From Chlamydiota bacterium (GTDB lineage: Bacteria; Auribacterota; JACPWU01): 32,000 nucleotides of DNA. The DNA is taken from contig JACPWU010000009.1 of the NCBI GenBank assembly GCA_016196885.1, positions 1-32,000 of the forward strand, read 5' to 3'. The notes under the pieces were generated by a model. The model saw only the letters and a program-made list of their open reading frames with translations. It was not told where the DNA came from and ran no database searches. A program made the position numbers and the translations under genes. This document shows, piece after piece, positions 584 through 32,000 of the stretch; position 1 is the stretch's first letter, and each line of letters begins with the position of its first letter.

Positions 584-767
584 AAATACCCTGCTATGTG
601 CGTAGGGAAGACAGATCTTTTAGCCAACAGCGACTAAAAAGGGAGCACTTCCTGGGTGATGGCTGGCAAGCCCGTAAGGGAAGCTAAAAGTCGTTCATAG
701 TGCGCCCACCTGATGAGGATAGCTCGCAAAAGATGTCTTTTCCACGGCAAGTGCGGGGTATTTTTTT
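584..767 (+). ncRNA. ssrS: structured ~185-nt RNA, 6S RNA-like
   Basis: The ends pair (aaataccctgc / gcggggtattt) and continue into a long irregular helix (gggaagacagatctttt / aaaagatgtcttttcc). Apical hairpins are cttcc...ggaag and ggct-ggca-agcc. There is an asymmetric internal loop on the 3' side, a T7 tract at 761-767, and no ORF. A 5-formyl-THF cyclo-ligase gene lies downstream, as in the classical ssrS-ygfA linkage. Confidence 0.45.
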
Positions 768-828
768 AAGGCAGAATTCAGAAGGCAGAATTCAGAAATC
801 AGAACAATAAGGATGTTATTTATTTTTT

Positions 829-948
829 AGGCATATGCACTTGACTCAAGTGTCGTCCATATGTAGTCGCCCCATTTATGGGGCCATGTATGGACTGCCC
901 GATAAATCGGGCGACTACGTTTGACGGTTGAGTCAAGTGCATAGGCCT
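829..948. repeat. 21-bp inverted repeats (20/21) forming a MITE-like shell around the REP doublet
   Basis: aggcatatgcacttgactcaa (829-849) versus ttgagtcaagtgcataggcct (928-948); the reverse complement differs at one position. Confidence 0.7.
863..918. repeat. REP doublet (REPIN-like), copy 1
   Basis: Two inverted 22-nt units, GTAGTCGCCCCATTTATGGGGC (863-884) and GCCCGATAAATCGGGCGACTAC (897-918), with a 12-nt spacer. Each unit is GTAG plus its own 5-bp/6-nt-loop hairpin. It is identical to the halves at 5905-5976. Confidence 0.75.
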
Positions 949-989
949 ATTATTTTTTATTCTGAATTCTGAGTTCTGGATTCTGTTTT

Positions 990-4457: not shown

Positions 4458-4461
4458 AACA

Positions 4462-4556
4462 AGTTCAAAAGTTCAAAGGTTCAACGAAGGTTTAAAGGTT
4501 TAAAAGTTCAAAGGACTTCCCTCTTTTGAACCTTTGAACTTTTAAACCTTTAAACC
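4462..4556. terminator. octad-periodic hairpin (GTTYAAAR units) with a perfect 26-bp stem; putative terminator/processing site after rny
   Basis: 4489-4514 (ggtttaaaggtttaaaagttcaaagg) is the exact reverse complement of 4531-4556. The loop is 16 nt. Three more direct octads lie upstream (4462-4488), and the stem is followed by tgcttttct and ATG 4566. Confidence 0.7.
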
Positions 4557-4565
4557 TGCTTTTCT

Positions 4566-5783: not shown

Positions 5784-5904
5784 GTTTAGTAAAATTGCGG
5801 GGTTGTGTTCAACTGTGAAAAATGAGGTAACTCCCCCAACCCCTCTTGCTATGAAACATTCATGCCGACTGAGGTCGGCACAAAGGGGGATGAAAATCAC
5901 CCTT

Positions 5905-5976
5905 GTAGTCGCCCCATTTATGGGGCGGTCTATGACATTGGGGCATTGGGCATTGCCCGATAAATCGGGCGACTAC
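5905..5976. repeat. REP doublet (REPIN-like), copy 2
   Basis: The same two 22-nt GTAG-headed units as at 863-918 (5905-5926 and 5955-5976, both 22/22 identical) with a 28-nt spacer. Flanking ctt/aag extends the pairing. Confidence 0.75.
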
Positions 5977-6197
5977 AAGTCATCATGAGTCATTGTATAA
6001 GAACGGGTGGGGCTTTTATTGCATACGATGACCCCCAACAGGGTCATTGAAATGAAAAAATAAGAGGGGAGCTCCCTTTGTGTGATAGAAGGGTTTTTAG
6101 CCCTCCCCTTATTTCAAGCCCTTACAAGATTTTATAGTCCCCGCGGGATAGTCCCTGTGGGAAAGGGGAGTTGGAGGGGTTATGGTTGGAGGGAAAA

Positions 6198-6580: not shown

Positions 6581-8488
6581 GTGTCCAAAATTTTAGAAAG
6601 AATCAATGGTTCACAAGATGTGAAAAGTCTTTCCATTTCTGAGTTGGAGATTCTCGCCAGTGAACTTCGCCAAGAAGTGCTTCGGGTGGTTTCCATCAAT
6701 GGGGGTCATGTCTCCAGCAATTTGGGTGTGGTGGAGCTGACCTTGGCGCTTCATTATGTGTTCAATACCCCTGCCGATAAATTGGTTTGGGATGTGGGTA
6801 ATCAAAGTTATCCGCATAAGCTCATCACGGGCCGTCGAGAGCCATTTCCCACTTTAAGAAAAATGAATGGGATTTCTGGATTCTGCAAAATCTCTGAAAG
6901 TCCTTACGACGCCTTTGGGGCGGGTCATGCCAGTACTTCTATTTCAGCGGCTTTAGGAATGGCGGTCGCTCGAGATGTCAGGGGCTCTGAGGAACGGGTG
7001 GTCGCAATCATTGGAGATGGGGCGATGACGGGCGGGATGGCCTACGAGGCCTTGAACAACGCAGGGGCGCTGAAAACAGATTTCCTTGTCATTTTAAACA
7101 CCAATGAAATGTCCATTGCCCCCAATGTGGGTGCCATTTCTCATTATGTGAATAAAGTGATTACGCATCCTCTCTACAACCGGGTCAAAGACGATTTGGA
7201 ACATTGGGTGGATCGGATTCCGGCGATTGGCCATCGGGTAGTGGAGACGGCGCATAAATTAGAAGAGAGCATTAAGAATTTGCTGGTTCCTGGAACTATT
7301 TTCGAGGGGCTGGGGTTTCGGTATTTTGGACCTGTGGAGGGTCATGATTTGGACGGCTTGATTAAAATTTTGAAAGACATCAAGGATTTGCACGGTCCCA
7401 TTCTCTTTCATGTGGTCACAAAAAAGGGAAGAGGTTACAAACCTGCAGAGGAGCGGCCGGATCAATTTCACGGCATGGGTCCTTTTGATTTGACAACCGG
7501 GAAGCCTTTAAAGGGATCTAGCGGAAAAAGTTTTTCCAATGCCTTCGGAGATGCCCTGTGGAGAGAGGCCGAAAAGGATCCTCGCATTGTAGCCATTACC
7601 GCAGCCATGCCATCGGGGACGGGCCTTGCAGAATTTGCCAAGCGTTATCCCAAACGATTTTTTGATGTGGGCATTGCCGAAGAGCATGCCGTCACTTTTG
7701 CGGGAGGCCTCGCAGCTCAAGGGCTAAAACCCGTGTTGGCGATTTATTCCACTTTTCTCCAGAGGGGATTCGATCAGGTGCTTCATGATGTCTGTCTTCA
7801 AAATTTACCCGTGATTTTTGGGATTGATCGAGCCGGGGTGGTGGGGGATGATGGACCCACGCATCAAGGCGTTTTTGACATCTCTTATTTAAGGCCCATT
7901 CCAAATTTAAAGATTGTTCAAGCTCGAAATGAAGCTACCCTGAAGACCATTTTGAAATGGGCGCTTCATGAAGAGGGGCCGGTCGCGATTCGTTATCCTC
8001 GCGGCAATGTACGCGAGGGTCTGGGGGATGACACGTGCCGGCCTTTAGATCAAGGGGGAGTGGATGTGGTGAGGAAGGGAAAAGACGTTGCGATTTTGGC
8101 CCTGGGGGACATGGTGTACATGGGATTAGAGGTGGCTGCCCTTTTAGAAAAGGATGGGATTTCGACACAGGTCATAGACGCTCGGTTTATCAAACCCCTC
8201 GATGAAGTTTTTCTCGAGAGGCTTTCGAAGGGGATCACGAAGTGGATCACTTTAGAGGATCATGTTTTGGCCGGCGGATTTGGAAGTGCGGTCCTTGAAT
8301 TTTTACAGGCCCGAAAAATTTCTGTGGAATTCATTCGGTTGGGCCTTCCGGATGTTTTTATTGAACAGGGTGTGCGTGAAAAGGTTTGGGAAGGCTTTGG
8401 TTTGTCAGCGCCTTTGATTGTCCAGAGAATTAAAAAAGAATTTGTAAAGGCTGTTTCTTCTACTGAAAAGATAGCGTACAGCGTCTAG
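6581..8488 (+). CDS. dxs: 1-deoxy-D-xylulose-5-phosphate synthase
   Basis: TPP-binding GDGAMTGGMAYEALNNAG plus transketolase-like pyrimidine-binding and C-terminal domains. I placed the start at GTG 6581 (aaggag ends 8 nt upstream). The ORF-track TTG 6521 start would translate the hairpin repeat. Confidence 0.95.
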   Translation: MSKILERINGSQDVKSLSISELEILASELRQEVLRVVSINGGHVSSNLGVVELTLALHYVFNTPADKLVWDVGNQSYPHKLITGRREPFPTLRKMNGISGFCKISESPYDAFGAGHASTSISAALGMAVARDVRGSEERVVAIIGDGAMTGGMAYEALNNAGALKTDFLVILNTNEMSIAPNVGAISHYVNKVITHPLYNRVKDDLEHWVDRIPAIGHRVVETAHKLEESIKNLLVPGTIFEGLGFRYFGPVEGHDLDGLIKILKDIKDLHGPILFHVVTKKGRGYKPAEERPDQFHGMGPFDLTTGKPLKGSSGKSFSNAFGDALWREAEKDPRIVAITAAMPSGTGLAEFAKRYPKRFFDVGIAEEHAVTFAGGLAAQGLKPVLAIYSTFLQRGFDQVLHDVCLQNLPVIFGIDRAGVVGDDGPTHQGVFDISYLRPIPNLKIVQARNEATLKTILKWALHEEGPVAIRYPRGNVREGLGDDTCRPLDQGGVDVVRKGKDVAILALGDMVYMGLEVAALLEKDGISTQVIDARFIKPLDEVFLERLSKGITKWITLEDHVLAGGFGSAVLEFLQARKISVEFIRLGLPDVFIEQGVREKVWEGFGLSAPLIVQRIKKEFVKAVSSTEKIAYSV

Positions 8489-8555
8489 CGTTTAGCGTAT
8501 AGAAAAAATAAATATTCCTTTCTGACCATCCGCTAACCGCTCCACGCTGTCCGCT
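8473..8555. repeat. heptad-periodic hairpin (AGCGTNN x4 / complementary arm), AGCGTAC family
   Basis: The left arm 8473-8502 (agcgtac agcgtct agcgttt agcgtat ag) pairs with the right arm 8526-8555, about 24/30 complementary. The left arm overlaps the dxs stop, and the right arm ends 8 nt before the tlyA ATG. Confidence 0.7.
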
Positions 8556-8563
8556 CAGGTCTC

Positions 8564-11636: not shown

Positions 11637-11717
11637 TTAATGAAACAAAAAAAGAAGGGGATTTATTTCTCATAGTTTAATGGGTTTTAAGGTTTTTATC
11701 TCTTGTTTTTTACAATT

Positions 11718-11748
11718 GACTTACGACTCATAACGATCGACTCACGAC
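11718..11748. repeat. orphan single arm of the GTCGTGA heptad family (ACTNACG-type heptads)
   Basis: gacttacgactcataacgatcgactcacgac is homologous to the right arm at 15991-16015, including the junction to the start codon. No complementary arm lies nearby. Confidence 0.6.
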
Positions 11749-11755
11749 TGTTTTT

Positions 11756-14700
11756 ATGACACATCCGATTCTTAAAAATCTTCATTTTTTCGAAGAGGTC
11801 TTGAAAAAGGTCCACGAGGGTTCTCGCATTCAGATGAGTGGCCTTTGGGATTCTTCCAAGGCGGCCTTGGCAGCTTGTCTTGCGGATCATTTCCAAAAAC
11901 GGATTCTGGTGGTGACTCCAGGATTGGGAGAAGCCGAGAGATTCTATCGGGATTTTTCTTTTTTTTCTGGAATCTCATGCCACCTTTTCCCCGCTTGGGA
12001 AACCTTGCCGCATGAGAATGTGACCCCTCATGTGGATATTGTAGGAGAGCGCTTTGGGACCCTGATGACCCTTTTAGAATCCGAAAGACCTGAATGCGTC
12101 ATCGCCCCTGTCGAGACGCTGCTCTGGAAAATTCCTAGCCCAGAGTCATTTAAAAAAATGATTTTAAATTTATCTTGCGGGGATGAAATTCCTTTGCGCT
12201 TTTTAATGGAGCGTCTTGTAGAGCTGGGTTATTCCAGAGGGGCTGTGGTGGAAGAGAAGGGCCGTTTTGCAGTGAGGGGTGGCATTCTCGATTTTTATTC
12301 TCTGCAAGAGGATTTTCCCTACCGGGTGGAATTCGAGGCTGATCGCATTGTTTCTTTGAGGGTTTTTGATCCTCAGAGTCAGGTTTCTTTGAAACAAGTA
12401 GAACGGGCCAAGATTTTGCCTGCCTTTGAGTTGGAATTAAGACAAAAGAAAAATTTATCATGGGGAAATCTTTCGGATTTTTTTTCAAGTGATTTTTTGC
12501 TCGTCTTGGATGAGGCCGCAAATATTTTTGAAAAGGCGCAATCTCTGGAGAGGGCAAGCGATTTTGGGGTTAAGGTGTTGAAAAATCCCAGAGGTCTTGA
12601 GTTTTATCTTTCTGAGATGGAAGGGCCAGGGGGTGATGAAAAGATGGAGCGAATGGCTTTTTCTATCCAGAGGTCTTGTTCTTGGGAAGATTTGAGAGTA
12701 GAAAATTTGAACGAGGAATGGGGTGATCATCCTCTGCGAATTTTTTCAAAAATCGGCGAGAAGACGCGAGAGGGATTTCACATTTATTTTGTGGTGAAGA
12801 AAGAGGCAGAAGGAGAGAGGCTGAAGGAACTTCTTCAGGAGAAGAAGATGTGGAAAGAAGCCGTGCACCATGTTGTGGTCGGGGACCTTTCAAGGGGCTT
12901 TGTACTTCCCCTTGAAAAAAAGGCCATTCTTACCGACGAAGAAATTTTTGGGAGATTGAGGGTGCGTCCCGTTCGGACAAAGGTTCGTAAAAGTCTTCCC
13001 GTCCAGGAATATTCCCAGTTTGAGGTGGGAGACTGTGTGGTGCATGGGGTGCATGGGATTGCAAGATATCGGGGGGTGAGTCGTAACAGTCAGGGGAAGC
13101 GGGGAGAATATTTAACTTTGGAATATGCGAATCAGGCCAAGCTTTATGTTCCGGTGGATCAAATTGAACTGGTGGAGCGTTACATTGGGATCAAGGGGCA
13201 GGTCCCGCGGTTGAGCCGCTTGGGTCGGGGGGAGTGGGAACGCTCGAAGAAAAAGGCCGAAGGGGCGATTCACGATTTTGCGGCGGAGCTTCTGGATCTC
13301 CAGGCCAAACGCGAGGCTTTGGGGGGCTACGCCTTTGGGCGTGATACGCCATGGCAGAACGAGTTTGAGGCTTCCTTTATTTATGAAGAGACACCGGACC
13401 AATGGCAGGCGATTGAGGAGGTGAAGCGGGATCTGGAATCTCCTCAACCCATGGACCGCTTGGTTTGCGGCGATGTGGGGTATGGGAAAACGGAGGTGGC
13501 CATTCGGGCGGCTTTTAAGGTGGTGATGGAGGGAAAACAAGTCGCCATCCTTGTTCCGACAACGGTTTTAGCGCAGCAGCATCTTTACACATTTCAGGAG
13601 CGATTTTCGGGATATCCGATTCAGGTGGAAATGCTCTCGCGGTTTCGCAGCGAGTCTGAGCAGGGGAAAATCTTAAAGGACTTGAAAGAAGGAAAATTAG
13701 ATGTGGTGATTGGGACGCATCGCCTTTTAAATCAAGATGTGGTTTTTAAAGATTTGGGGTTGCTGGTGATTGATGAAGAACAGCGCTTCGGTGTTTTCGC
13801 CAAAGAAAAATTAAAGAAGATGAGGATTTCGGTGGATGTTTTAACGCTGAGTGCAACCCCCATCCCTCGGACCCTCTATTTGTCTTTGATGGAGGCCAAA
13901 GACATGAGCCTCATCATGACCGCACCTCAAAATCGCTTGCCCATAGAAACAGTTCTGGCGGCCTATGATGACCAGATGGTTCGAGATGCCATTGTTCGGG
14001 AAGTGGCGAGGGAAGGGCAGGTGTTTTTCATCCACAATCGTGTGGGAAGCATTTATCGCATGAAGGAAAGGCTCGAAAAATGGGTTCCGGGTGTTCATTT
14101 TGAAGTGGCGCATGGCCAAATGCCAGAGGATGAATTGGAAGAGGTGATGAAAAATTTTATAGAGGGGAAAATTCAGGTATTGGTTTCAACCAATATTGTA
14201 GAGTCGGGTCTTGATATCCCGAATGCGAATACCATTATCATAGATCGCTCAGAACATTTTGGGTTGGCGGATCTTTATCAATTGAGGGGACGGGTGGGGC
14301 GTCTCCATCGCAGGGCCTATGCCTATTTGCTTTATTCTCGAAATGGGATTTTGACGAAGGATGCCAAGCTCCGGCTAAAAACCATTGAGGACTTTAAGGA
14401 GCTGGGCTCTGGATTTAAGGTGGCCATGCGGGATTTGGAGATTCGAGGAGCTGGAAATATTCTGGGGCGAGCGCAGCATGGGCAAATTTCGGCCGTTGGA
14501 TTTGGACTTTATTGCCGGTTGCTGCAGGCTTCCATTCGTCGGATCAAAAAAGAGGAAGTGAAGGAACGCCACCCCGTGGGCTTGCAATTGGGGTTGGACC
14601 TCACTTTGCCGCCAGAGTATATTCCAGATGATTCTTTGAGACTGCAAATGTATCGCAAGATTTTTGAAGTGGACTCTTCGCAAAAATTGGTCCAGGTGTC

Positions 14701-14971: not shown

Positions 14972-15936
14972 ATGGAAGAAGCAAGGAGAGATTATCCAAT
15001 TCATTTTTTGTTCTCTTTCTTTCCCTTTTCCTTTCATGCCTTTCTCTTTCCCACTCTGCTGTTGTCTCTCGCGTGGTTGCAGAAGTCAATGGAGAAATCA
15101 TCACTTCTCAAGAGTTGGATCAAGTGCTTCGGCCTCTTTACGCAAAATACAAAAGGGCCTATTCGGGAGAAGAACTGAATAAACATATGGAGGAGGCCAG
15201 GCGAGACGCCCTTTCTCAATTGATTGAGCGCAAATTGGTTCTTCAAGAAGCTAAAAAGCAAAACATTCAAATTGAAGACAAGAAAGTGGAGGAGCGTTTT
15301 CAGGCTGTTAAATCCAAGTTTGATTCGGACGATGAATTTTATTATGCCTTGGAGAAAGAGGGGATGACAACGGACCAGTTGAGAGAAAATATTCGAGAGC
15401 AGCTTTTGGTCAAGACGCTTTCTCGGCAAGAGATCTTGAGGTCTATCCATGTTCGTCCCAAGGAGGTCAGCGATTATTACAGTCAAAATACTCAAAGATT
15501 TTCAGAACCTGAAATGGTTCAAATGGGCCAGATCTTGGTCAAAAAAGGAGATCATGCCGAGGCCGCCAAGCAAAAAATAGAGGAGGCTCAAAAAAAGTTG
15601 AAAGGGGGGACTTCTTTTGAGGCGGTGGCCAAAGAATATTCTGAAGATCCTTACGCGAAGGAGGGAGGAGACATGCCCTTTTTCGCCAAAGGCAATTTGA
15701 TGAAGGAAATTGAAGATGAGGCCTTTTCAATGGAGGTGGGCCAAACGAGTGAAACCATCGAAAGCGATCTAGGGTATCATATTTTAACTTTGAAAGCCCG
15801 TAAGCAGGATCGGGTGAAGCCCCTTTCTGAAGTTTATTCTGAGATTGAGGAAGAACTTTATCAGCAGAAGGTCGAAGCATTCCACGAGAAATGGGTGGAG
15901 AAATTGAAGAAAAAGGCCCATGTGGTGGTGTATTAA
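14968..15936 (+). CDS. SurA-like periplasmic chaperone / parvulin-type peptidyl-prolyl isomerase
   Basis: Signal peptide (FFVLFLSLFLSCLSLSHS), a SurA-N-like helical domain, and a parvulin domain (GGDMPFFAKGNLMKEIEDEAFSMEVGQTSETIESDLGYHIL). It has an ATGA overlap with mfd. Confidence 0.88.
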   Translation: MNGRSKERLSNSFFVLFLSLFLSCLSLSHSAVVSRVVAEVNGEIITSQELDQVLRPLYAKYKRAYSGEELNKHMEEARRDALSQLIERKLVLQEAKKQNIQIEDKKVEERFQAVKSKFDSDDEFYYALEKEGMTTDQLRENIREQLLVKTLSRQEILRSIHVRPKEVSDYYSQNTQRFSEPEMVQMGQILVKKGDHAEAAKQKIEEAQKKLKGGTSFEAVAKEYSEDPYAKEGGDMPFFAKGNLMKEIEDEAFSMEVGQTSETIESDLGYHILTLKARKQDRVKPLSEVYSEIEEELYQQKVEAFHEKWVEKLKKKAHVVVY

Positions 15937-15939
15937 AAA

Positions 15940-16015
15940 CAGTCGTGAGTCGTGAGGGATGAGTCGTGAGTAAAAAATAACTCCTTTAAAACTCACGACC
16001 CACGACCCACAACTG
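15940..16015. repeat. heptad-periodic hairpin, GTCGTGA family
   Basis: The left arm 15940-15971 is cagtcgt gagtcgt gagggat gagtcgt gagt. The right arm 15991-16016 (actcacgacccacgacccacaactgt) has one heptad fewer. There is a 9-bp perfect apical stem, then about 13/15 pairs after a one-heptad bulge. It is followed by tcttt and ATG 16021. Confidence 0.75.
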
Positions 16016-16020
16016 TCTTT

Positions 16021-21155: not shown

Positions 21156-22580
21156 ATGGATTACGAACCCGTCATAGGTCTAGAAGTTCATGTTCAGCTC
21201 AAAACAGCGTCCAAGCTTTTTTGCGGCTGTTCGACGAAGTTTGGAGCGCTTCCTAACGCGCAGGTGTGTCCGGTCTGTTTAGGCTATCCCGGGGTGTTGC
21301 CTGTTTTAAATGAGAAGGCTCTGACCCTTGCGGTTATGGCGGGTCTAGCTATGGGGTCGACGGTTGCTCTCTACAGTAAATTTGATCGTAAAAATTATTT
21401 TTATCCCGATTTACCCAAGGCTTATCAAGTTTCACAATATGATGAGCCTATTTGTCTCGGAGGAAAAATTGACATTGAGGTAGAAGGGACACGCAAAGAG
21501 ATTCGTTTGACGCGCATTCATTTAGAAGAGGATGCGGGGAAATCCATGCATTTCAAAGGCGACACAGGTGTGGATTACAATCGTACTGGAATCCCTTTGA
21601 TTGAAATTGTATCAGAGCCCGATTTAAGGTCTCCTCAGGAGGCCTATCAATACTTAAAAGAGCTGAAAACGATTTTAGAATATTTGGATGTGAGTGATTG
21701 CAACATGGAAGAGGGGAGTCTTCGCTGTGATGCGAATGTTTCTTTGAGGCCGGTAGGTGAGAAAAAAATGGGGACGCGAGCGGAAATCAAAAATCTGAAT
21801 TCTTTTCACAATGTTGAAAAAGCAATTACATATGAAATTGAACGCCAAAAAGAACTTTTGTCTCGGGGTGAGCGTATTGTTCAGGAGACTCGGCTTTGGA
21901 ATGCGGATGAAAGCTTTACGCGTTCGATGCGAAGCAAAGAAGCCGCCCATGATTATCGTTATTTCCCTGAACCCGATTTAGTTCCGATCGTCTTTTCTGC
22001 TAAAGAGATTGAATCCGTTCGAGTGAGTTTACCAGAGCTTGCCCAGAGGCGCAAAGAGCGCTTTATGAAGGATTTTGCTTTGACGGCCTATGACGCGGAG
22101 GTTTTGACGGCCCAAAAAGACCTTGCCGATTTTTTTGAGCGCTGCCTAAAATATTCTAAAAATGCAAAGGCGATTAGCAATTGGATGATGGGCGATTTAA
22201 TGAGAGAATTGAAGTTGAAAGATTTGGGAATAGCCCAGTCTCCTATGTCCCCGGAGCATATTGCAGGATTGATTGAACTGATGGATCAAGGAAAAATCAG
22301 CGGAAAAATGGCCAAAGATGTTTTTCTTGAAATGTTTGGCACAGGAAAATCTGCGCAAGAGATTGTGAGCGCGAAGGGATTGAGTCAGCTTTCAGATTCC
22401 TCTCAAATTGAGGGTGTGGTCAAAAAAGTGATTCAGGAAAATCCACCTTCGGTTCAGGATTACCGAAATGGAAAGAAGAATGCTCTGAGTTATTTGGTAG
22501 GACAAGTGATGAAGGCCACTCAGGGTCGTGCAAATCCGAAGATGGTGAATGAGTTGTTGGTGAAAGAATTGGAAAAATAG
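21156..22580 (+). CDS. gatB: Asp-tRNA(Asn)/Glu-tRNA(Gln) amidotransferase subunit B
   Basis: YEPVIGLEVHVQL N-terminus, NRTGIPLIEIVSEPD, and a GatB/YqeY C-terminal domain. Confidence 0.96.
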   Translation: MDYEPVIGLEVHVQLKTASKLFCGCSTKFGALPNAQVCPVCLGYPGVLPVLNEKALTLAVMAGLAMGSTVALYSKFDRKNYFYPDLPKAYQVSQYDEPICLGGKIDIEVEGTRKEIRLTRIHLEEDAGKSMHFKGDTGVDYNRTGIPLIEIVSEPDLRSPQEAYQYLKELKTILEYLDVSDCNMEEGSLRCDANVSLRPVGEKKMGTRAEIKNLNSFHNVEKAITYEIERQKELLSRGERIVQETRLWNADESFTRSMRSKEAAHDYRYFPEPDLVPIVFSAKEIESVRVSLPELAQRRKERFMKDFALTAYDAEVLTAQKDLADFFERCLKYSKNAKAISNWMMGDLMRELKLKDLGIAQSPMSPEHIAGLIELMDQGKISGKMAKDVFLEMFGTGKSAQEIVSAKGLSQLSDSSQIEGVVKKVIQENPPSVQDYRNGKKNALSYLVGQVMKATQGRANPKMVNELLVKELEK

Positions 22581-22660
22581 CGTACAGCGGATAGCGTTCA
22601 GCGTACAGGAAAAACACAATTCCTGATAAACTGAACGCTGTACGCTGATCGCTGAACGCT
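22579..22660. repeat. heptad-periodic hairpin, AGCGTAC family (second copy)
   Basis: The left arm is agcgtac agcggat agcgttc agcgtac ag (22579-22608). The right arm is ctgaacg ctgtacg ctgatcg ctgaacg ct (22631-22660), about 23/28 complementary. There is an inner cagga/tcctg stem. It starts inside the gatB stop codon. Confidence 0.7.
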
Positions 22661-22672
22661 AGGAGTTTTATC

Positions 22673-24951: not shown

Positions 24952-25860
24952 TTATTTCTCTTCCAAAATTTTTTCATACGCTGCCTTCGCGGCATTCTTC
25001 TCTGCTTCTTTCTTGCTGGGGCCAGAACCGTGGCCGTACACCTCTCCCTTGATGGTGACCGTGGCCTCAAAATGTTTTTTATGATCCGGGCCTGTTTCAG
25101 AGATGATGGCGTAAACAGGATTGCTTTTGTGCTTGATATGAGAGACTTCCTGCAAAAGATTTTTGTATTCCTTCGTGTGGATTTCATGCGGAAGTTTTTT
25201 GAGCAATCCTTTGAATTGTGAGAGGATAAATTTTCGAGCAGAGCGTATTCCGCCGTCCAGATAAATCGCCCCCATCAGGCTTTCAAAGGCATTCGCCAAG
25301 ATCGAATCACGGCTGCGCCCTCCAGAGGCTTCTTCTCCTTTGCTTAAGAATAAATATTTGCCCAGGTCGATGTCTCGAGCCAGGATGGCCAAGGTTTCTC
25401 TTCGGATGAGCATGGATTTAATGATCGAGAGCTCACCCTCCTGATAGGTTTCAAACTTTCTGAAGAGAACGTCGGTGATCACCAATCCTAGAACAGAATC
25501 TCCCAAGAACTCGAGCCGCTCGTTGTCTTTGACATCCATTTTTTGGCCATCATAGACAAAGGATTTGTGGCAAAGGGCCTCGTAGGCAAGATGTTTATGC
25601 TTGAAGGGATGACGAATCAATTTTTCAAGTTTGGCGAGCAATTTTTCTTCGCTTTTTGTTTTCACGCTAAAGTACTTTACCAAATTGAAGGGGGTGGATT
25701 CAAGAGATGGTGAAATATTGTGTGTTCCCTCCCAAATTTGATACACTTCACATGATTGTGAGAATGAGGAAGCTATGTTTTCAAAAAGCCTCTTGATAGG
25801 GTTGATTTCCTTCTTTGCTATTACCTCCCTTTTTTCAGAGTCGCCTCTTGTGTATCGCAT
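24952..25860 (-). CDS. rnc: ribonuclease III (start uncertain: ATG 25860 or GTG 25665)
   Basis: ERLEFLGDSVL signature and a C-terminal dsRBD (FEATVTIKGEVYGHGSGPSKKEAEKNAAKAA). The 302-aa reading carries a ~65-aa N-terminal extension and overlaps the divergent tolC-like gene by 86 nt. Confidence 0.9.
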   Translation of the reverse strand: MRYTRGDSEKREVIAKKEINPIKRLFENIASSFSQSCEVYQIWEGTHNISPSLESTPFNLVKYFSVKTKSEEKLLAKLEKLIRHPFKHKHLAYEALCHKSFVYDGQKMDVKDNERLEFLGDSVLGLVITDVLFRKFETYQEGELSIIKSMLIRRETLAILARDIDLGKYLFLSKGEEASGGRSRDSILANAFESLMGAIYLDGGIRSARKFILSQFKGLLKKLPHEIHTKEYKNLLQEVSHIKHKSNPVYAIISETGPDHKKHFEATVTIKGEVYGHGSGPSKKEAEKNAAKAAYEKILEEK

Positions 25861-27058
25861 GGAAGACTTGGTCCAGCGGGCGCTTGAGAATTCCCAGGAA
25901 CTGAAGCTTTTGGACGAGGATATTCAGCGTTCTGAAAAGGAATTGAAAGTGACCAGAACCTCTTATTGGCCGCATTTGACGCTTCAGGGAAATTTGGGGG
26001 TGGATCTTTTTTCTCTGGAGGATTTTGACCCGAATCGCAACATGGGATCGGATCTTATTTTAGATTGGAATTTTTTTCAAAATGGACTGGTTTTTTATCG
26101 GGTCGAGCAGGCCAAGGCCCAGGTGGAATTAGCCCGTCTCCAAAAGAAGGCAAAAGAGATTGAACTGGCGCATCACATTCGAATTTTGATTTGTGATCTT
26201 TTGGAGAAACAAGAATCTTTGAAATTGCAAGAGGCCGAGCAGGATTTTACTCAAAAGGGGTTTGAAAAACTTCGGTTGGAATTTGATCAGGGCAATGTGC
26301 GCAGGAATGATCTTTTGAAGCACCGGATTGAAATGTATGAGAAACAAAATCTTTTGGATCAGGCTCGAAGAGAGTATGAAGCAAACTTTCAAAAGATTAA
26401 AAATGAGGCGGATGTGATTTCTGTGGAAAATATTGCTCCACCTGAAATTGAAACGGAGACTTTGCCTTATGAAAAATGTGTCCAGATGGTTTTGAAGTGT
26501 CGTGTGGAGATTCGACAGGCTGAGATTCAGTCTCAATTGACTGAGCGGGCCCTTCGGGTCTCCAAACTGGGTTTGTTGCCTCGCTTGGACCTTTTTGCTG
26601 GAAATGCGTTTGCCCTGGATGATGTGGGCCAGAATTCAGATCCCTTTCAATTTCGCACGGGGGTCATTGCCCGTTACCCCTTGTACGATGGGGGCGAGGC
26701 CCGTCTTCAAATTGTGCTTGCCCAAATGGCGGTCCGAAAGGCCCATTTTCAATTAGAGGAGGCTAAGAAAAAAGTTTTGGGGGAGTTAGAAAGTGCCTAT
26801 GGAGATTGGGAAGATGCAAAGAGGTTTTTCCAAACGGGAGAGCTTCAATATGAGGGTGTGATGCAGGAATTTGAAAAAACGCAGGGTGAGTTTAAACAGG
26901 GCCAACTTTCTCCTTATGAATGGGAGGAAAGCGAATTGAGTCTGAGAAGAGCCCAAGCGCATGCCTTAGGTTTGAGGCTAGCCGTGATTCGCAGAGAGGC
27001 TGCCTTGGCAAAAGTGATGGGACTGAAAAGTTTGGAAGAGATGGCGGATCCGCAATGA
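25775..27058 (+). CDS. TolC-family outer membrane efflux protein
   Basis: Signal peptide MFSKSLLIGLISFFAITSLFS with gaggaag upstream. Two OEP-type repeats with coiled-coil character, about 427 aa. Confidence 0.88.
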   Translation: MFSKSLLIGLISFFAITSLFSESPLVYRMEDLVQRALENSQELKLLDEDIQRSEKELKVTRTSYWPHLTLQGNLGVDLFSLEDFDPNRNMGSDLILDWNFFQNGLVFYRVEQAKAQVELARLQKKAKEIELAHHIRILICDLLEKQESLKLQEAEQDFTQKGFEKLRLEFDQGNVRRNDLLKHRIEMYEKQNLLDQARREYEANFQKIKNEADVISVENIAPPEIETETLPYEKCVQMVLKCRVEIRQAEIQSQLTERALRVSKLGLLPRLDLFAGNAFALDDVGQNSDPFQFRTGVIARYPLYDGGEARLQIVLAQMAVRKAHFQLEEAKKKVLGELESAYGDWEDAKRFFQTGELQYEGVMQEFEKTQGEFKQGQLSPYEWEESELSLRRAQAHALGLRLAVIRREAALAKVMGLKSLEEMADPQ

Positions 27059-28269
27059 CATTTCAGAAAAAATCTTGGTTTTTATGGGGGGGCATTCCTA
27101 CCTTGCTTCTCTTTTTTTCTGTGGGGGCTTGGGTGCGCTCATTCCGTGAGTCTGTGGCCCCGGAGCTAAAGGCCGTGGTCTCTCGTGGAAGTATTCGTCA
27201 GGTGATTCAGGGGGGAGGCACCTTAGAGGCAGATGAAATCAAATCCGTCCAATCGCCGCTGGAGGGAACGCTCAAAAATATTTTCGTTCACAGCGGAGAT
27301 AGAATTAGAAAGGGAAAAATTATTTTCGAAATTGGAAACGATCATTTTAAACAAGATCTCGCATTGGCTCGAGCTCAGTACGATCAAGCACTTTTGGAAT
27401 GGAAGAAAATGAAAAATCTTCCGAACGAGGCAGCGATGCTGGAGGCCAAAAATACCTTGGAGAAGGCCAAACAGGTGCTCCAAGAAACAGAAAAGGAGGT
27501 TCGAGATAAAAAAGACCTCTGTGAAAAGGGCTTTATTTCTCAAAAGGAATTAGAAGATGCGCAAAATTATTTGAGCACGGCCAAGACGGAAAAAGACATT
27601 GCCTTTTCGCGGTGGAGCGAAGTTTCAAAACCTTCCTCACAAGAGGATCGCAGCCTTAAGAAGGCAGAGCTTTCCAAGAAAAAAATGGAATTGAAAAATC
27701 TGAAGGCTCAGTGGAAGGGCCGTCGTTTCAAATCCCCGTTTAAGGCCTGGGTGGTGGATATTTCAAAGAAGGTGAATGAAGAGGTGGGTCGAGAGGATCC
27801 GATTCTAAGCTTGGTCAATTTGGAAAAACCCTTTGTGGTCAAGGGGGCACTTTACGAATCGGACGTGCATGAGGTGAGAGAAGGAGAGAAGGCCTGGATT
27901 AAAATGACGGGATCCCGTCAGAGGTTAAAGGCAGAAGTGACAGAGGTCTCCCCGATGGCGCAAAGCGTCGGGGGTGGAAGAAAATTCCCCATGAAATTGC
28001 GTGTTGATGGAAAAATTCGGGGCGTGCCTCGATTGGGTGTTGCGGTGGATTATGAAATTTTTGTTCAGGAGAAACAAAATGTTTTAACACTGCCGCTTCC
28101 TTTTGTGGTGCATGAAGAAAGTCAAAGAGGTGCCTGGGTTTTAAAGGGAGGAAAGGCTCGGTTCGTTCCTTTGGGATTGGGTCTGAGCGATGATGCAAAA
28201 ATTGAGGTGATGGGGGGAGTCAAAGAGGGAGAGGAAGTGATTTTGCCGCGAGCGAGGGTTGAGTCTTGA
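27055..28269 (+). CDS. periplasmic adaptor subunit (HlyD/MacA family)
   Basis: N-terminal TM anchor (WFLWGGIPTLLLFFSVGAW), biotinyl-lipoyl-like segment, long coiled-coil hairpin, and beta-barrel C-terminus. ATG 27055 overlaps the tolC-like stop (ATGA). The ORF-track start 26920 is inside the upstream gene. Confidence 0.88.
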   Translation: MTFQKKSWFLWGGIPTLLLFFSVGAWVRSFRESVAPELKAVVSRGSIRQVIQGGGTLEADEIKSVQSPLEGTLKNIFVHSGDRIRKGKIIFEIGNDHFKQDLALARAQYDQALLEWKKMKNLPNEAAMLEAKNTLEKAKQVLQETEKEVRDKKDLCEKGFISQKELEDAQNYLSTAKTEKDIAFSRWSEVSKPSSQEDRSLKKAELSKKKMELKNLKAQWKGRRFKSPFKAWVVDISKKVNEEVGREDPILSLVNLEKPFVVKGALYESDVHEVREGEKAWIKMTGSRQRLKAEVTEVSPMAQSVGGGRKFPMKLRVDGKIRGVPRLGVAVDYEIFVQEKQNVLTLPLPFVVHEESQRGAWVLKGGKARFVPLGLGLSDDAKIEVMGGVKEGEEVILPRARVES

Positions 28270-28281
28270 AGAAGTAACCCC

Positions 28282-28342
28282 CCTAGCCCAGCAAGGAAGG
28301 CTGCACTGCCACTGGCAGTGCAGCCTTCCTTGCTGGGCTAGG
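28282..28342. repeat. perfect 61-nt palindrome (29-bp arms, 3-nt loop), CCCAGCAAGGAAGG-family copy A
   Basis: cctagcccagcaaggaaggctgcactgcc-act-ggcagtgcagccttccttgctgggctagg. I checked the arms base by base and they are exact reverse complements. Confidence 0.9.
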
Positions 28343-28350
28343 TAAAAAAA

Positions 28351-28420
28351 CATCTACTACCGCGGTCGGCTTTGCATTGCCACTGGCAATGCAGCCTCCC
28401 TTGCTGGGTTGGGGGAGTTA
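28351..28420. repeat. CCCAGCAAGGAAGG-family copy B (module L - 9-bp hairpin - module R)
   Basis: catctactaccgcggtcggc / tttgcattgcc-act-ggcaatgcag / cctcccttgctgggttgggggagtta. It is the inverted partner of 30429-30485. Confidence 0.85.
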
Positions 28421-28440
28421 TTTCATTATCCTTGTCATTT

Positions 28441-29196
28441 ATGTCTGAAACCATAATCTTAAATTCCATTGAAAAAAAACTTGAGAGACCTCAAATCTCT
28501 TCCCCTATTCTCTGTGAATTAATCGCTGTTTCAAAAGAGTATTCACTCGATTCTGGAAATGTGATGGCTCTCAAAGACATCCATTTTCGCCTTTACGAAA
28601 AAGATTTTTTATCCATTTTAGGACCGAGTGGCTCTGGGAAAAGTACCTTGCTTCACATCCTGGGTCTTTTGTCAAATCCATCCAAAGGAAGAATTTTCTT
28701 TAAGGGACAGGATGTTTCTTGTTTGAGCGAATGGGCTTTGGCCCGATTGAGAGGCCAAAAAATCGGTTTCGTTTTCCAGGCCTTTCATTTGCTTCCCTCT
28801 CTCAATGCCTTGGAAAATGTAGCGCTTCCTCTCATCTATCAACGGGTCAGTGGGGGCCAGAGGAAGAGAAAGGCACTCGAGGCTCTTGAAAAAGTGGGGC
28901 TTGCAAGGCGTTCGCACCATTTTCCCAGGCAGTTATCAGGGGGAGAGTCTCAGCGAGTGGCAATTGCGAGGGCCTTGGTGAGTCAACCTTCTTTAATTTT
29001 GGCGGATGAGCCCACTGGAAATTTAGACACTCAGATGGGAAAAGAAATTTTGGGAATGCTCAAAATGTTGAATGAAGAAGGCAAAACGGTCGTGGTTGTG
29101 ACACATGATGTTCGGATTGCGAATGAAGCCAATCGGATTCTCTTTTTGAAAGATGGGAAAGTAGAGAGTTTGAGTTCTAGAGGTGAGGCGAGATGA
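28441..29196 (+). CDS. ABC transporter ATP-binding protein (MacB/LolD-type)
   Basis: GPSGSGKSTLL, LSGGESQRVAIARAL and ILADEPTGNLD. I placed the start at ATG 28441. The ORF-track TTG 28372 start would translate repeat B. Confidence 0.93.
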   Translation: MSETIILNSIEKKLERPQISSPILCELIAVSKEYSLDSGNVMALKDIHFRLYEKDFLSILGPSGSGKSTLLHILGLLSNPSKGRIFFKGQDVSCLSEWALARLRGQKIGFVFQAFHLLPSLNALENVALPLIYQRVSGGQRKRKALEALEKVGLARRSHHFPRQLSGGESQRVAIARALVSQPSLILADEPTGNLDTQMGKEILGMLKMLNEEGKTVVVVTHDVRIANEANRILFLKDGKVESLSSRGEAR

Positions 29197-30404
29197 AATC
29201 CCACCTGATTTTTTACGATCATTTAAAAACGGCTTTTCAAATGGTTTCGACGCATCGGCTGAGATCCCTTTTGAGTGTGGTGGGGATTGTCTTTGGGGTT
29301 TTGACCTTGATGGTGACGCTGTCTATTGGAGAGGGGACACGTCGAAAAATCATGAAGACGATTGAGGCGATGGGATCCAATTTAATTTACGTCTCTTCGC
29401 ATGCAGGGATGAGTCAGGACGCGGGTTTCGAATACATTCCATTGACTGAAGCAGAATGTCAGCGTTTCAAAGAGGTGAAAGGAATAGAGGCCTATGCCCC
29501 CATTTTAAGCTCTGCCTTTTTGATGCAGGCCTCCACCTTTCAGCAGGTCATTCCCGTGGAGGGGACGACGCCTTCTTATCAAAGGGTGAGGGATTTGGCT
29601 CTCGATCAAGGCCGGTTTCTCGCGGATGAGGATGTGTTAAAGGAATCACGCGGGGTGGTGATTGGAAAAGATCTCGCCCAATTTCTTTTTCCTTTTCAGA
29701 ATCCCTTGAACCAAAAAGTTCACCTTTGGGATGAAAGTTTTAAAGTGGTCGGCGTCCTTCAGAAAAAGGGGCGGACTTTTGGAGTGGATTTTGACCGCGA
29801 GGTTTTAATGCCTCTTTCGACTCTACAGCAAATTCAGGGAAAAAGAGGGGAGGTGCAGGGGGCTTGGATTCGGACCCCCCGCGGGGATTTGACGAAGCAG
29901 GTGATGAGACAGATGGAAATTTTACTTTCCCGTAAAGATGTAGAGATTTGGGATCAGGAGGCACTTCTTTCGAAGAAGGATCGCATCACGCGGGCCTTTA
30001 AATGGTCTTTGGGATCCATTGCCTTGGTGAGTTTATTGATAGGAGGCATCGGGGTCATGAATGTCCTTTTGGTCTCTGTGGCAGAGCGGATTCGTGAAAT
30101 GGGGCTTCGAAAGGCTGTGGGTGCGACCTCCAGAGATATTCTTTTTCAATTGATATTTGAGTCTGTCTTTTTAACTCTGACCGGGTCTTGTGTGGGCATC
30201 TTGTTGGGGCTTGTCACGGGAGATTTCATCGCCTGGCTTTTGAATACCCTGCTTCCGAGCACAGAAAAGTGGGAAGCGGTTTTTTCTTGGAGTTCAATCG
30301 GGGTTGCATTTCATTTTTCTCTATGGGTGGGACTTCTTTTTGGTCTTTATCCTGCCTGGAAGGCGTCCAGGCTGGATCCGTGTGAGGCGTTGACGTATTT
30401 TTAA
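29193..30404 (+). CDS. ABC transporter permease (MacB periplasmic core + FtsX domain)
   Basis: 403 aa. N-terminal TM helix, a ~220-aa periplasmic domain, and a C-terminal 3-TM FtsX-like module. It has an ATGA overlap with the ATPase gene. Confidence 0.92.
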   Translation: MKSHLIFYDHLKTAFQMVSTHRLRSLLSVVGIVFGVLTLMVTLSIGEGTRRKIMKTIEAMGSNLIYVSSHAGMSQDAGFEYIPLTEAECQRFKEVKGIEAYAPILSSAFLMQASTFQQVIPVEGTTPSYQRVRDLALDQGRFLADEDVLKESRGVVIGKDLAQFLFPFQNPLNQKVHLWDESFKVVGVLQKKGRTFGVDFDREVLMPLSTLQQIQGKRGEVQGAWIRTPRGDLTKQVMRQMEILLSRKDVEIWDQEALLSKKDRITRAFKWSLGSIALVSLLIGGIGVMNVLLVSVAERIREMGLRKAVGATSRDILFQLIFESVFLTLTGSCVGILLGLVTGDFIAWLLNTLLPSTEKWEAVFSWSSIGVAFHFSLWVGLLFGLYPAWKASRLDPCEALTYF

Positions 30405-30428
30405 AGTAATGGGTCCTGTCCCTCCTCA

Positions 30429-30485
30429 CCCAGCAAGGAAGGCGTTTCTTCCAGTGGAAGAAACAGCCGACCGCGGTAGTAGATG
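30429..30485. repeat. CCCAGCAAGGAAGG-family copy C (module R' - 9-bp hairpin - module L'), inverted relative to copy B
   Basis: cccagcaaggaagg / cgtttcttcc-agt-ggaagaaaca / gccgaccgcggtagtagatg. L' is the 20/20 reverse complement of 28351-28370, and R' is 13/14 to the complement of 28395-28408. Confidence 0.85.
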
Positions 30486-30607
30486 TTGTTTTCCATTTAA
30501 CGGTCGACGGCATCGGTCTCGAAATAGTTTTTGATCATGATTCTTGGCGTAAGTCTCGACCTGCTGGCGCTCGATGGGGGACCCCCAGTCGGGCCACCCA
30601 CTACTTT

Positions 30608-31675
30608 TCATCGTTTCGCCATTTGCCTTCTAAAATTTTGAAAGTCCTTCTCCAGTTGCTCAGGGGTTGTCCTTAAATTTCTCGCCAAGATTGCGATTTG
30701 AGTGCTTTCCTCTGGGTGGTTCTGGACCTGTTTCAAAAATTGATAGAAGCCGGTTTGTCGGGGCGATTGCATGAGATAATAAATGAGACACCAGGAGGTG
30801 GCATAGGCATCGAGGGCCTGGTTTTCATTCAGACCGAGGAAACTTCGAATGCTCATCAATTCTGAAACCTTCATGGGTGGAAGGTAGGCCAGGAGAAGCA
30901 TGTACTGGCGATGGGGAAGACCGATTTGCGCCTTTTCACAATAGACCGCCCAGCCTTCCAGAAGCCAGCTCGCCACATTTTTCGGGAGGATGTTGTATTG
31001 TGCCGAAAGTTGATGGGTCGCTTCATGGCGCATGAGGCTGAGGGTCTGGTCCATTTGGCCTGTCAAAGTCGGCAGGAGAATTTCTTGGTAGCGAAAAGGG
31101 ATTTTGACATGGGCGAGGGGAGAGGTGCTTTTCGTGATGTCGAGCGCATTGTAGAGATAAAGCCGGTGGTCTTTGAAGTTGTAGAAACCGCAGACCCACT
31201 CAGGGACACGGTTTTTTCGGCGGAATTCCTGAAAGGTTTTTTCAGAATCAAAAAAAACCACTTGAAGACCCAACCCGCGTTGGCCAGAAAGAAGCATGGA
31301 AAAGGTGCCTCGAAATTGAGTTTCAAAGGAGAGTAAGGTTTGAAGTGCATTCTGAAAGGCGAAGGATTTTTTTTCCGTGAGAATGGAATAAACAGGAGTT
31401 TTTACAAAAGTGAAGGATGGAAAGTCTTGTTTAAATTCAACATCTTCTAGGGAGATAAATTTTTCAGCTACCTGGGCCTCCATCGCCAATCCATGGCGCA
31501 GTTGAAGTGTCTTTTCATCCCAGGTTTGGGAGGTAGGATGGGAGGGGATGACAGATTTTTTGAAAGCGACTTGTAAGCTACGTGTGGAAGATTCTTCTTT
31601 TTTTCTGTTTTCGAAGAAGAGGCCTGTTCCTACGATAACAGCTATTAAAGTGGTTAGCCTCAATAAAGTTTTCAC
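30608..31675 (-). CDS. secreted/anchored DUF1570-like putative metallopeptidase-fold protein
   Basis: N-terminal hydrophobic anchor (LRLTTLIAVIVGTGLFF) and an HEATHQ motif in MRHEATHQLSAQ, as in DUF1570/peptidase-MA-like proteins. Confidence 0.75.
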   Translation of the reverse strand: MKTLLRLTTLIAVIVGTGLFFENRKKEESSTRSLQVAFKKSVIPSHPTSQTWDEKTLQLRHGLAMEAQVAEKFISLEDVEFKQDFPSFTFVKTPVYSILTEKKSFAFQNALQTLLSFETQFRGTFSMLLSGQRGLGLQVVFFDSEKTFQEFRRKNRVPEWVCGFYNFKDHRLYLYNALDITKSTSPLAHVKIPFRYQEILLPTLTGQMDQTLSLMRHEATHQLSAQYNILPKNVASWLLEGWAVYCEKAQIGLPHRQYMLLLAYLPPMKVSELMSIRSFLGLNENQALDAYATSWCLIYYLMQSPRQTGFYQFLKQVQNHPEESTQIAILARNLRTTPEQLEKDFQNFRRQMAKR

Positions 31676-31750
31676 TTTAATTTCATTTTAGCACATTTTT
31701 TTTGATAAAATTGAAAACAGACAGAAATATTCATAACCTTATGATGTTTT

Positions 31751-31823
31751 CATCCTGAGGAGTGGAACGACGAAGGGTCTTGATTGAAAAACAAGATCCT
31801 TCGTCGCTGCGGCTCTCAGGATG
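31751..31823 (+). promoter_or_regulatory. 32-nt-arm hairpin in the leader of the glutamate dehydrogenase gene
   Basis: catcctgaggagtggaacgacgaagggtcttg (31751-31782) pairs with caagatccttcgtcgctgcggctctcaggatg (31792-31823). The structure is a 9-bp stem, a 7x7 internal loop, and a ~16-bp stem with one G.U and one A.C. It ends 2 nt before the aggag SD (31826-31830). Confidence 0.55.
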
Positions 31824-31841
31824 ACAGGAGACGGGCGGAAC

Positions 31842-32000
31842 ATGGACGCTTTTGAAACGACAAATATTTATTTCCACCGTGCTGCAGATCTTTTGGGTTT
31901 GAATGAAAGGGTTCGTACCCTCCTTCTCAATCCTTCCCGTGAGGTGAAGGTTTCCATTCCCATTGAGCGCGAGGACGGGACCCTGGCCCATTTTGTGGGT
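31842..32000 (+). CDS. Glu/Leu/Phe/Val-family (glutamate) dehydrogenase, N-terminal 53 codons; continues past the window
   Basis: MDAFETTNIYFHRAADLLGLNERVRTLLLNPSREVKVSIPIEREDGTLAHFVG matches the conserved GDH N-terminus (...A...L.L......L..P.RE..V..P...DDG....F.G). aggag lies 11 nt upstream. Confidence 0.8.
   Translation, partial: MDAFETTNIYFHRAADLLGLNERVRTLLLNPSREVKVSIPIEREDGTLAHFVG

Follow-up and report, generated by a model that had tools for sequence, protein, structure and literature searches.

Small hairpin repeats in the gaps of a tolC-macA-macB operon of an uncultured Chlamydiota: a candidate lineage-specific family

Introduction

Repetitive extragenic palindromic (REP) sequences form families that include subsets with different stems, lie near the 3' ends of open reading frames (ORFs), between unidirectional or convergent genes, and are sometimes nested in longer palindromes (PMC3733652). 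In REP doublets forming hairpins (REPINs), the spacers keep hairpins in which "compensatory changes ... are common", and the unit, once excised, takes the form of an asymmetric hairpin that carries a 5' tail (PMC3116915). A different arrangement of short sites is found in the dif modules of Acinetobacter plasmids, where small gene sets are bracketed by inversely oriented XerC/XerD pdif sites (PMC6449649, PMC13141974). Here, we analyze three short repeats, denoted A, B and C, that lie next to the ATP-binding cassette (ABC) transporter genes of a tolC-macA-macB(ATPase)-macB(permease) operon in a metagenome-assembled genome of an uncultured member of the Chlamydiota. The stretch analyzed, hereafter the window, consists of positions 1 to 32,000 of contig JACPWU010000009.1 (assembly GCA_016196885.1).

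The closest known kinds of elements are REPINs, or REP dimers, and the bacterial miniature inverted-repeat transposable elements (MITEs). We favor, with moderate confidence, the explanation that A, B and C belong to a new, lineage-specific family of REPIN/MITE-like, non-coding hairpin repeats of ~65-85 nt that were inserted in the gaps of an ancestral tolC-macA-macB operon. The evidence that carries this explanation comes from the architecture of the repeats, from the operons of six relatives that contain no repeats, and from a variant contig that lacks copy A.

Results

Each of the three copies is built around a short hairpin that is flanked by constant modules, namely L and R in B and C, and R together with its complement (R') in A.

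28274..28277, plus strand: GTAA, possible 4-nt target duplication flanking A, left copy (right copy at 28342-28345)
28278-28342: copy A, a CCCC 5' tail and a perfect 30+1+30 palindrome (28282-28342), R'-TGCACTG-CCACTGG-CAGTGCA-R
28342-28424, plus strand: copy B as a whole, L - (TT bulge) - TGCATTG-CCACTGG-CAATGCA - R
28342..28371, plus strand: L module of copy B, GTAAAAAAACATCTACTACCGCGGTCGGCT
28373..28393, plus strand: hairpin of copy B, TGCATTGCC-ACT-GGCAATGCA, with the TT bulge (28371-28372) above the GGC/GCC foot
28394..28424, plus strand: R module of copy B with its extension, GCCTCCCTTGCTGGGTTGGGGGAG, and a TTATTTC tail; a terminator-like pyrimidine/purine hairpin
30420-30499, minus strand: copy C as a whole, L - (T bulge) - GTTTCTT-CCACTGG-AAGAAAC - R
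30420..30443, minus strand: R module of copy C with its extension (reverse complement GCCTTCCTTGCTGGGTGAGGAGGG)
30444..30464, minus strand: hairpin of copy C, GTTTCTTCC-ACT-GGAAGAAAC as read on the minus strand
30465..30499, minus strand: L module of copy C with its extension (reverse complement TAAATGGAAAACAACATCTACTACCGCGGTCGGCT); its AAATGK start matches the B junction in the variant contig L028 described below

The R module, GCCTTCCTTGCTGGG, occurs four times with at most 2 mismatches (28287-28301 and 30429-30443 on the minus strand, 28323-28337 and 28394-28408 on the plus strand), against a chance expectation of 0.11, and the L module, ACATCTACTACCGCGGTCGGC, occurs twice with 0 mismatches (28350-28370 on the plus strand and 30466-30486 on the minus strand; chance expectation, 0.00). 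Together with its flanks, L is identical in B and C at 27 of 28 positions. R extends to ~24 nt (GCCTYCCTTGCTGGG-YNR-GGRGGRG), and the extended form is able to fold on itself into a pyrimidine/purine hairpin. Because L ends with GGCT and R begins with GCC, the central hairpins stand on a conserved GGC/GCC foot, with a T bulge of 1-2 nt in B and C. Copies B and C are mutually inverted, the R modules facing the two ABC genes and the L modules facing outward, so that the module matches bear out the arrangement proposed in an initial annotation of this DNA that was made from the sequence alone. The repeats recur in independent assemblies, that is, in contig JACOUD010000075.1 of the NCBI assembly GCA_016178005.1, where the window sequence is also on record, and in Logan unitigs of three sequencing runs (SRR12113387, SRR12113416 and SRR12113417), and an assembly artefact is thus ruled out.

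In all three copies, the hairpin consists of a 9-bp stem topped by a CC/ACT/GG apex, the stem arms being TGCATTGCC/GGCAATGCA in B, GTTTCTTCC/GGAAGAAAC in C and TGCACTGCC/GGCAGTGCA in A. When the three cores are aligned, all pair cells (33/33) are Watson-Crick, without a single G-U pair; 6 of the 9 stem pairs have changed on both sides and none on one side only. As a control, sliding the partner by 1-3 columns brings the pairing down to 36-61%. The perfectly paired hairpins with a common apex and differing stems, as described in the initial annotation, are therefore real. The same annotation reported a third stem variant in A, which is correct inasmuch as A differs from B, but the difference is a single compensated pair (5 differences in total separate the two copies over 41 aligned nt of the right halves, this pair accounting for two of them), so that there are effectively two independent stems rather than three. 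Selection on the structure, or a mechanism that copies one arm from the other, is a reasonable interpretation of such stems; with two independent stems behind it, the paired variability is a suggestive signal of selection that falls short of statistical proof.

The repeats occupy the gaps around the two ABC genes, which are the last two genes of the operon.

25775..27058, plus strand: TolC-like outer membrane efflux protein (Pfam OEP), first gene of the operon
27055..28269, plus strand: membrane-fusion protein (MFP; MacA/HlyD-like); the start at 27055 is the one recorded in the assemblies
28441..29196, plus strand: MacB-type ABC ATPase
29193..30404, plus strand: MacB-type permease (MacB_PCD + FtsX)
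30608..31675, minus strand: DUF1570 gene, convergent with the permease gene; copy C lies between the 3' ends of the two

Copies A and B lie inside the 171-nt gap between the MFP and ATPase genes, and copy C lies, on the opposite strand, inside the 203-nt gap 3' of the permease gene. All the elements are thus placed 3' of stop codons, between unidirectional and convergent genes. The best homologues of the permease are 58-63% identical to it, and two of them are labelled Chlamydiae or Chlamydiota in their sources.

The order and orientation of the OEP, MFP, ATPase and permease genes are identical in six relatives, and several of them also keep the neighboring genes upstream (Mur ligase, RNase III) or downstream (DUF1570, glutamate dehydrogenase and a cNMP-binding protein, among others). 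Compared to the 171 nt in the window, the gap between the MFP and ATPase genes is 11 nt in locus L016, 81 nt in L014, 11 nt in L024, 5 nt in L025, 13 nt in L029 and 18 nt in L031; compared to the 203 nt in the window, the gap between the permease and DUF1570 genes is 84 nt in L024, 99 nt in L025 and 0 nt in L031. Neither the L module nor the R module was found in the loci of the six relatives. The compact, repeat-free form of the operon in these relatives identifies A, B and C as lineage-specific insertions into an ancestral operon. By the same token, a gene order that is shared with repeat-free relatives implies that the two ABC genes are ancestral at this site and were not carried in by the repeats. 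A foreign origin of the ABC pair was also considered and dismissed, given that its G+C content is the same as that of the neighboring genes.

The C-terminal tail of the MFP that follows the conserved EG..V.LP motif (window 28198-28269) varies in length and sequence in every relative (L014, L016, L024, L025 and L029). This variable tail is the site where the repeats are inserted in the present lineage.

Direct evidence on the mobility of copy A comes from the Logan contig L028 (SRR12113417), which matches the window with 0 mismatches from position 28342 for ~1.39 kb, through the ATPase gene and into the permease gene, and in which copy A is absent. Position 28342 is the final paired base of the A palindrome; to the left of it, L028 reads GGGAGGGGAATTGTTTGGTTTTCGGACAGCCTGAAAT, and the junction without A is CCTGAAATGTAAAAAAACATC. 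In the window, the extra DNA has GTAA at either side (28274-28277 and 28342-28345), whereas L028 has a single GTAA. The absence of A from an otherwise identical contig, combined with the GTAA on both sides, indicates that A is a recent indel, and the comparison of the two sequences establishes its presence/absence polymorphism. The inserted unit consists of CCCC and a 61-nt perfect hairpin, in other words, a hairpin with a short 5' tail. In L028, the L module of B begins directly after the MFP stop codon, with stop codons just ahead of L, and the start of L in this contig, AAATGTAAAAAAACATC, is closer to that of copy C, AAATGGAAAACAACATC, than the start of L in the window is. The left flank of L028 resembles a diverged end of the MFP gene, its first 18 nt being ~78% identical to the window by eye.

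Comparison of positions 1-41 of L028 with window positions 28228-28345 reveals a sharp mosaic, in which the last ~40 nt of the MFP gene are strongly diverged and 10 nt shorter. The edge of this mosaic, at the outer end of B, could be either a recombination breakpoint or the joint of a chimeric unitig. An MFP protein search for the lineage of the L028 variant, at a cut-off of 1e-60 that is too strict for fragments, returned only the query and a relative with 43% identity.

A, being perfect as well as polymorphic, is evidently recent; as neither B nor C is identical to it, the template of A would be expected at another place in the genome. The need for a template beyond B and C is the main argument that leads us to infer a dispersed, active family. 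In the Logan unitigs of SRR12113387, the end of L022 and the start of L005 overlap by exactly 30 nt inside copy B (28363-28392, comprising part of L and the hairpin). Such an overlap implies a branch of the de Bruijn graph at this point, caused by another copy or by a variant.

These observations bear on the possibility that the repeats arose purely locally, with C derived from B, or B from C, through inverted duplication or template switching and A generated by fold-back, with neither transposition nor a genome-wide family. In keeping with such an origin, all known copies lie within 2.2 kb of each other, none is found elsewhere in 39 kb of the contig or in the public collections scanned, and the arms of A are exact complements, as fold-back synthesis would produce. 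Duplication followed by drift, however, does not fit copies B and C, the flanks of which are 96-100% identical and the loop the same, yet the stems of which differ at 5 of 7 positions. Moreover, A is recent and yet unlike both B and C, the unitig break inside B points to another copy or variant, and the window contains four other palindrome families, each with 2-3 dispersed copies. Accordingly, we assign only a small chance to a purely local origin.

The folding potential of the repeats raises the alternative that they are a functional RNA module. B and C could be kept as a matched inverted pair, with L/L' and R/R' pairing around the macB genes in the polycistronic transcript; together with the 29-bp hairpin of A, this pairing would give rise to sites of RNase III processing or of transcript stability by which the ratio of MacA to MacB is set, in a manner similar to the stalks that flank rRNA. 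When joined, B and C fold into a four-way junction at -114 kcal/mol (z = -13), the A palindrome folds at -65.3 kcal/mol (z = -13), and the whole gap that contains A and B folds with z = -10. Furthermore, the elements are located in untranslated gaps of a single operon, the different stems of B and C would force two local hairpins in preference to one long duplex, and REPs are known to affect mRNA stability (PMC3733652). In silico, however, any pair of inverted repeats folds in this manner. In the six relatives, the corresponding junctions are 5-18 nt long (81 nt in one case) and contain no element, so that the repeats are not needed for the function of the pump; A is polymorphic; and the neighboring RNase III gene is syntenic in the repeat-free locus L016. 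Finally, stems that consist entirely of Watson-Crick pairs, with no G-U, show the pattern of a DNA palindrome, which selection at the RNA level alone does not predict. On balance, we regard a functional RNA module of this kind as unlikely.

Other types of signals were sought in the same sequences. The central hairpins lack a T tract. Two R-module hairpins were flagged as terminator-like, one in B (28396-28417, with TTATTTCATT behind it) and one in the left arm of A on the minus strand; the region contains 9 terminator-like matches compared to 9.3 expected from shuffling. In Rfam, no match to A, B or C reached the gathering score, 6S RNA (585-763) being the only family to do so in the window, and sub-threshold matches to miRNA hairpin models were obtained for A only. 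A sigma-54 promoter was dismissed, the GG/GC spacing being wrong.

The initial annotation placed emphasis on the geometry of B and C, interpreted as that of an invertible or excisable cassette. In such a cassette, a site-specific recombinase, acting on the inverted copies, would flip or remove the 2.0-kb segment with the macB genes. The inverted repeats of ~75 nt around 2.0 kb, with their conserved hairpin apex, do have this geometry, and two observations keep a small opening for this interpretation, namely, the switch of L028 from strong divergence to full identity at the outer edge of B and the unitig break inside B with its 30-nt overlap. The remaining evidence is against it. Pfam scans of all window ORFs of at least 100 aa yielded housekeeping genes only, and these scans, combined with the gene tables of contigs L021 and L027 that extend the window by 7 kb, revealed no recombinase or transposase domain in ~39 kb, in agreement with the annotation, which had itself remarked that no recombinase is nearby. 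Inversion would create junctions of the form GGGCTAGGTAAAAAAACATCTAC...R joined to GGAGGGACAGGACCCATTAC and ...GGTAAAAAAACATCTAC-hairpin-GCTGGG joined to TGAGGAGGGACAGGACCCATTAC, but a single orientation is seen in all four assemblies or unitig sets that cross a junction, which comprise the window sequence, GCA_016178005.1 and, from Logan, contigs L005, L022 and L028. In addition, the genes are ancestral at this site in the six relatives, no direct repeat or target duplication flanks the segment from B to C, and an inversion would sever the ABC genes from the operon promoter. The cassette is thus unsupported, and we see hardly any chance that it exists. The chance that two occupied gaps out of ~27-30 are neighbors is ~7%, and their relative orientation is a coin toss; the bracketing by B and C is therefore not compelling, and the inverted arrangement around the macB genes is most likely incidental.

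A related proposal is that the L-hairpin-R elements serve as sites of recombination or processing and mark off a macB module that can be exchanged; Chlamydiota would then have, on the chromosome, a counterpart of dif modules that is based on hairpins. The proposal would account for co-occurring lineages that are 100% identical for at least 1.39 kb inward of the outer edge of B while the MFP tail outside is strongly diverged and of a different length, and for the ability of the inverted B and C to form a four-way junction; the stems may then serve as copy-specific "addresses" with a constant apex. We consider such a module very unlikely.

Discussion

Taken together, these results are best accommodated by a family of mobile hairpins. 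Under this model, an enzyme whose gene lies at another place in the genome would copy the elements in the form of single-stranded hairpins, in the style of the REP-associated tyrosine transposases (RAYTs) or of IS200; the enzyme would read the constant loop, foot and flanks, whereas the stem would only need to be paired. Alternatively, the palindrome may be made by fold-back, with one arm serving as the template of the other. Either hairpin copying or fold-back would yield stems that differ from each other and yet are perfectly Watson-Crick paired, with no G-T intermediates. A probable by-product of the hairpins is that they shape the mRNA. In particular, A would form a 29-bp duplex of the kind that is cut by RNase III and could uncouple the expression of macA from that of macB. 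Effects on the macA/macB stoichiometry are a plausible consequence of the insertions but an unlikely reason for their existence because the relatives do without the elements.

Several results weigh against a dispersed family of this kind. The three known copies all lie within 2.2 kb, and no further copy was detected in the other ~37 kb of the contig, either by pattern or with a covariance model; when run over 147 kb (the window and all Chlamydiota loci), the covariance model of the hairpin and R recovered only A (on both strands), B and C. Among the GTDB representative genomes and JGI metagenome contigs, the pattern of the hairpin and R produced 12 matches, all of them high-GC chance matches without a hairpin; the scan of IMG/VR with the L module gave two chance matches only, and blastn of the gap with A and B against PLSDB gave none. 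With no copies in the scanned collections, the dispersed family is inferred and not seen directly. A search of six-frame peptides of A, B and C against a protein collection returned nothing at E<=10 and is uninformative inasmuch as a known 35-aa product of L022 was missed as well, probably because a long artificial peptide query costs too many bits. With regard to the elements themselves, B and C lack the symmetry of REPINs, L not being complementary to R; the foot of the hairpin carries neither a GTAG nor a CGTC tag; B and C show no evident target duplication; the ~39 kb covered by the window and its extension contain no transposase for the elements; and the strong divergence of the MFP tail in L028 blurs the exact left boundary of the A indel.

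Among the described systems, REP sequences and REPINs resemble the elements in several respects. The initial annotation had offered REP/BIME-like (bacterial interspersed mosaic element) punctuation as a more conservative reading, and this fits well: the elements are short hairpin repeats in extragenic DNA that follow stop codons and separate unidirectional and convergent genes, one copy is an indel polymorphism, and true GTAG REP doublets share the window with them. In copy A, a spacer hairpin lies between two conserved modules of opposite orientation (R'-hairpin-R), and the arms are complementary at 30/30 positions; the spacer stems are variable but paired, as in REPINs (PMC3116915), and the unit of the A indel, a hairpin with a short 5' tail, is similar to the excised REPIN intermediate. 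In contrast to REPINs, B and C have L in place of R', and L is unrelated to the complement of R. The foot, GGCT.../...GCC, carries no GTAG or CGTC tag, GTAG being found only within the complement of L, 13 nt from the foot; the other family of the window (862-923 and 5902-5979) does have such a tagged foot. The loop with its closing pairs is invariant while the stem varies. With the tag absent and the symmetry limited to A, membership of A, B and C in a RAYT-REP system is not established. Such systems are further characterized by numerous copies scattered over extragenic DNA and by a single-copy Y1 (HUH) transposase gene with the repeats on its flanks; the ~39 kb covered here contain three copies and no such gene.

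With MITEs such as Correia/NEMIS, RPE and ERIC, the elements share a small size, the lack of coding sequence and an inverted symmetry of the ends, as well as an insertion that is polymorphic among closely related strains; like MITEs, they may also be inserted in or beside other repeats and may alter mRNA processing. Copy A may also have a short target duplication (GTAA), the empty site in L028 being inexact because the left flank has diverged. Unlike for MITEs, no cognate insertion sequence or transposase is seen for the elements, B and C are without clear terminal inverted repeats or target duplications, and their length of 65-85 nt is at the small end of the MITE size range.

Two other systems share some features with the locus. 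As in dif modules, a small gene set, here transporter genes, lies between inversely oriented short sites. However, pdif sites are 28 bp long, with conserved 11-nt arms and a variable 6-nt spacer, whereas here the 9-nt arms are variable and the 3-nt spacer is constant; furthermore, the locus is chromosomal, within an ancestral operon, and shows no sign of module movement. With integron attC sites, the repeats analyzed here share outer boxes that are conserved, an inner stem that varies but stays paired, and bases that bulge from one strand, but the repeats have no RYYYAAC/GTTRRRY core sites at their ends and much longer constant modules, B and C are inverted rather than direct, and the window contains no integrase. 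Both dif and attC sites were dismissed because their architecture does not match.

If the explanation that we favor is correct, A, B and C add to the environmental Chlamydiota a family of small, mobile palindromic repeats that had not been described before; in a narrow literature search, we found no earlier description of such elements for Chlamydiota. With copy A, the locus would also offer a clear case from nature of an insertion that entered an efflux-pump operon very recently, caught in a population. The design with a constant loop and a variable stem would provide a handle for finding the copying enzyme and for testing whether hairpins tune the subunit ratios of a tripartite pump. More generally, the locus points to an extensive biology of palindromes in environmental Chlamydiota and not to a new kind of genetic switch.

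Additional observations

Nearly every intergenic gap of the window contains a long, often nested palindrome, and these palindromes belong to differing sequence families. With palindromes in most gaps, A, B and C appear as one family among many in a repeat-prone lineage. GTAG-tagged REP doublets (GTAGTCGCCC[C/G]ATTTAT[G/C]GGGC) are present at 858-923 and 5902-5979 and, beyond the window, at L027 16091-16158. Judging by their sequences, these three REPIN-like doublets imply that a RAYT-type system exists in this Chlamydiota genome. In the doublets, GTAGTCGCCCCATTTATGGGGC ... GCCCGATAAATCGGGCGACTAC, an "a" unit is paired with a "b" unit that is one compensated stem pair apart. Two of the three doublets are nested within TAGGCATATGCACTTGA arms, forming the composite palindromes at window 764-989 and L027 16038-16196, a nesting of the type known from some REP dimers (PMC3733652). 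The former has a third layer, made of CAGAAnn heptad repeats, spans 226 nt, folds at -113 kcal/mol and lies just downstream of a 6S RNA gene (window 585-763, plus strand; Rfam RF00013, 79.5 bits).

Palindromes of another type, with arms composed of tandem units of 7-8 nt (GTTYAAAR, YAGCGTN or GTCGTGA), were found at window positions 4458-4565, 8464-8563, 15937-16020, 22570-22672 and 31750-31824. At the same places in relatives, there are tandem-unit palindromes of unrelated sequence (L024 7195-7325 and L025 7140-7290).

Downstream of the DUF1570 gene, glutamate dehydrogenase (window 31842-32000; L027 13381-14470) is split into ORFs of 285 and 81 aa, with no gene called, whereas it is intact, at 409 aa, in L024, L025 and L031. 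The split version is possibly a pseudogene or the product of an assembly frameshift.

A second inverted pair, at 11716-11762 and 15928-15974 (47 nt, 81% complementary), brackets mfd and a SurA-like gene, 4.2 kb in all. Arms of the same orientation adjoin the start codons of mfd (11756) and pdxA (16021), in the form ...ACTGTYTTTATG.

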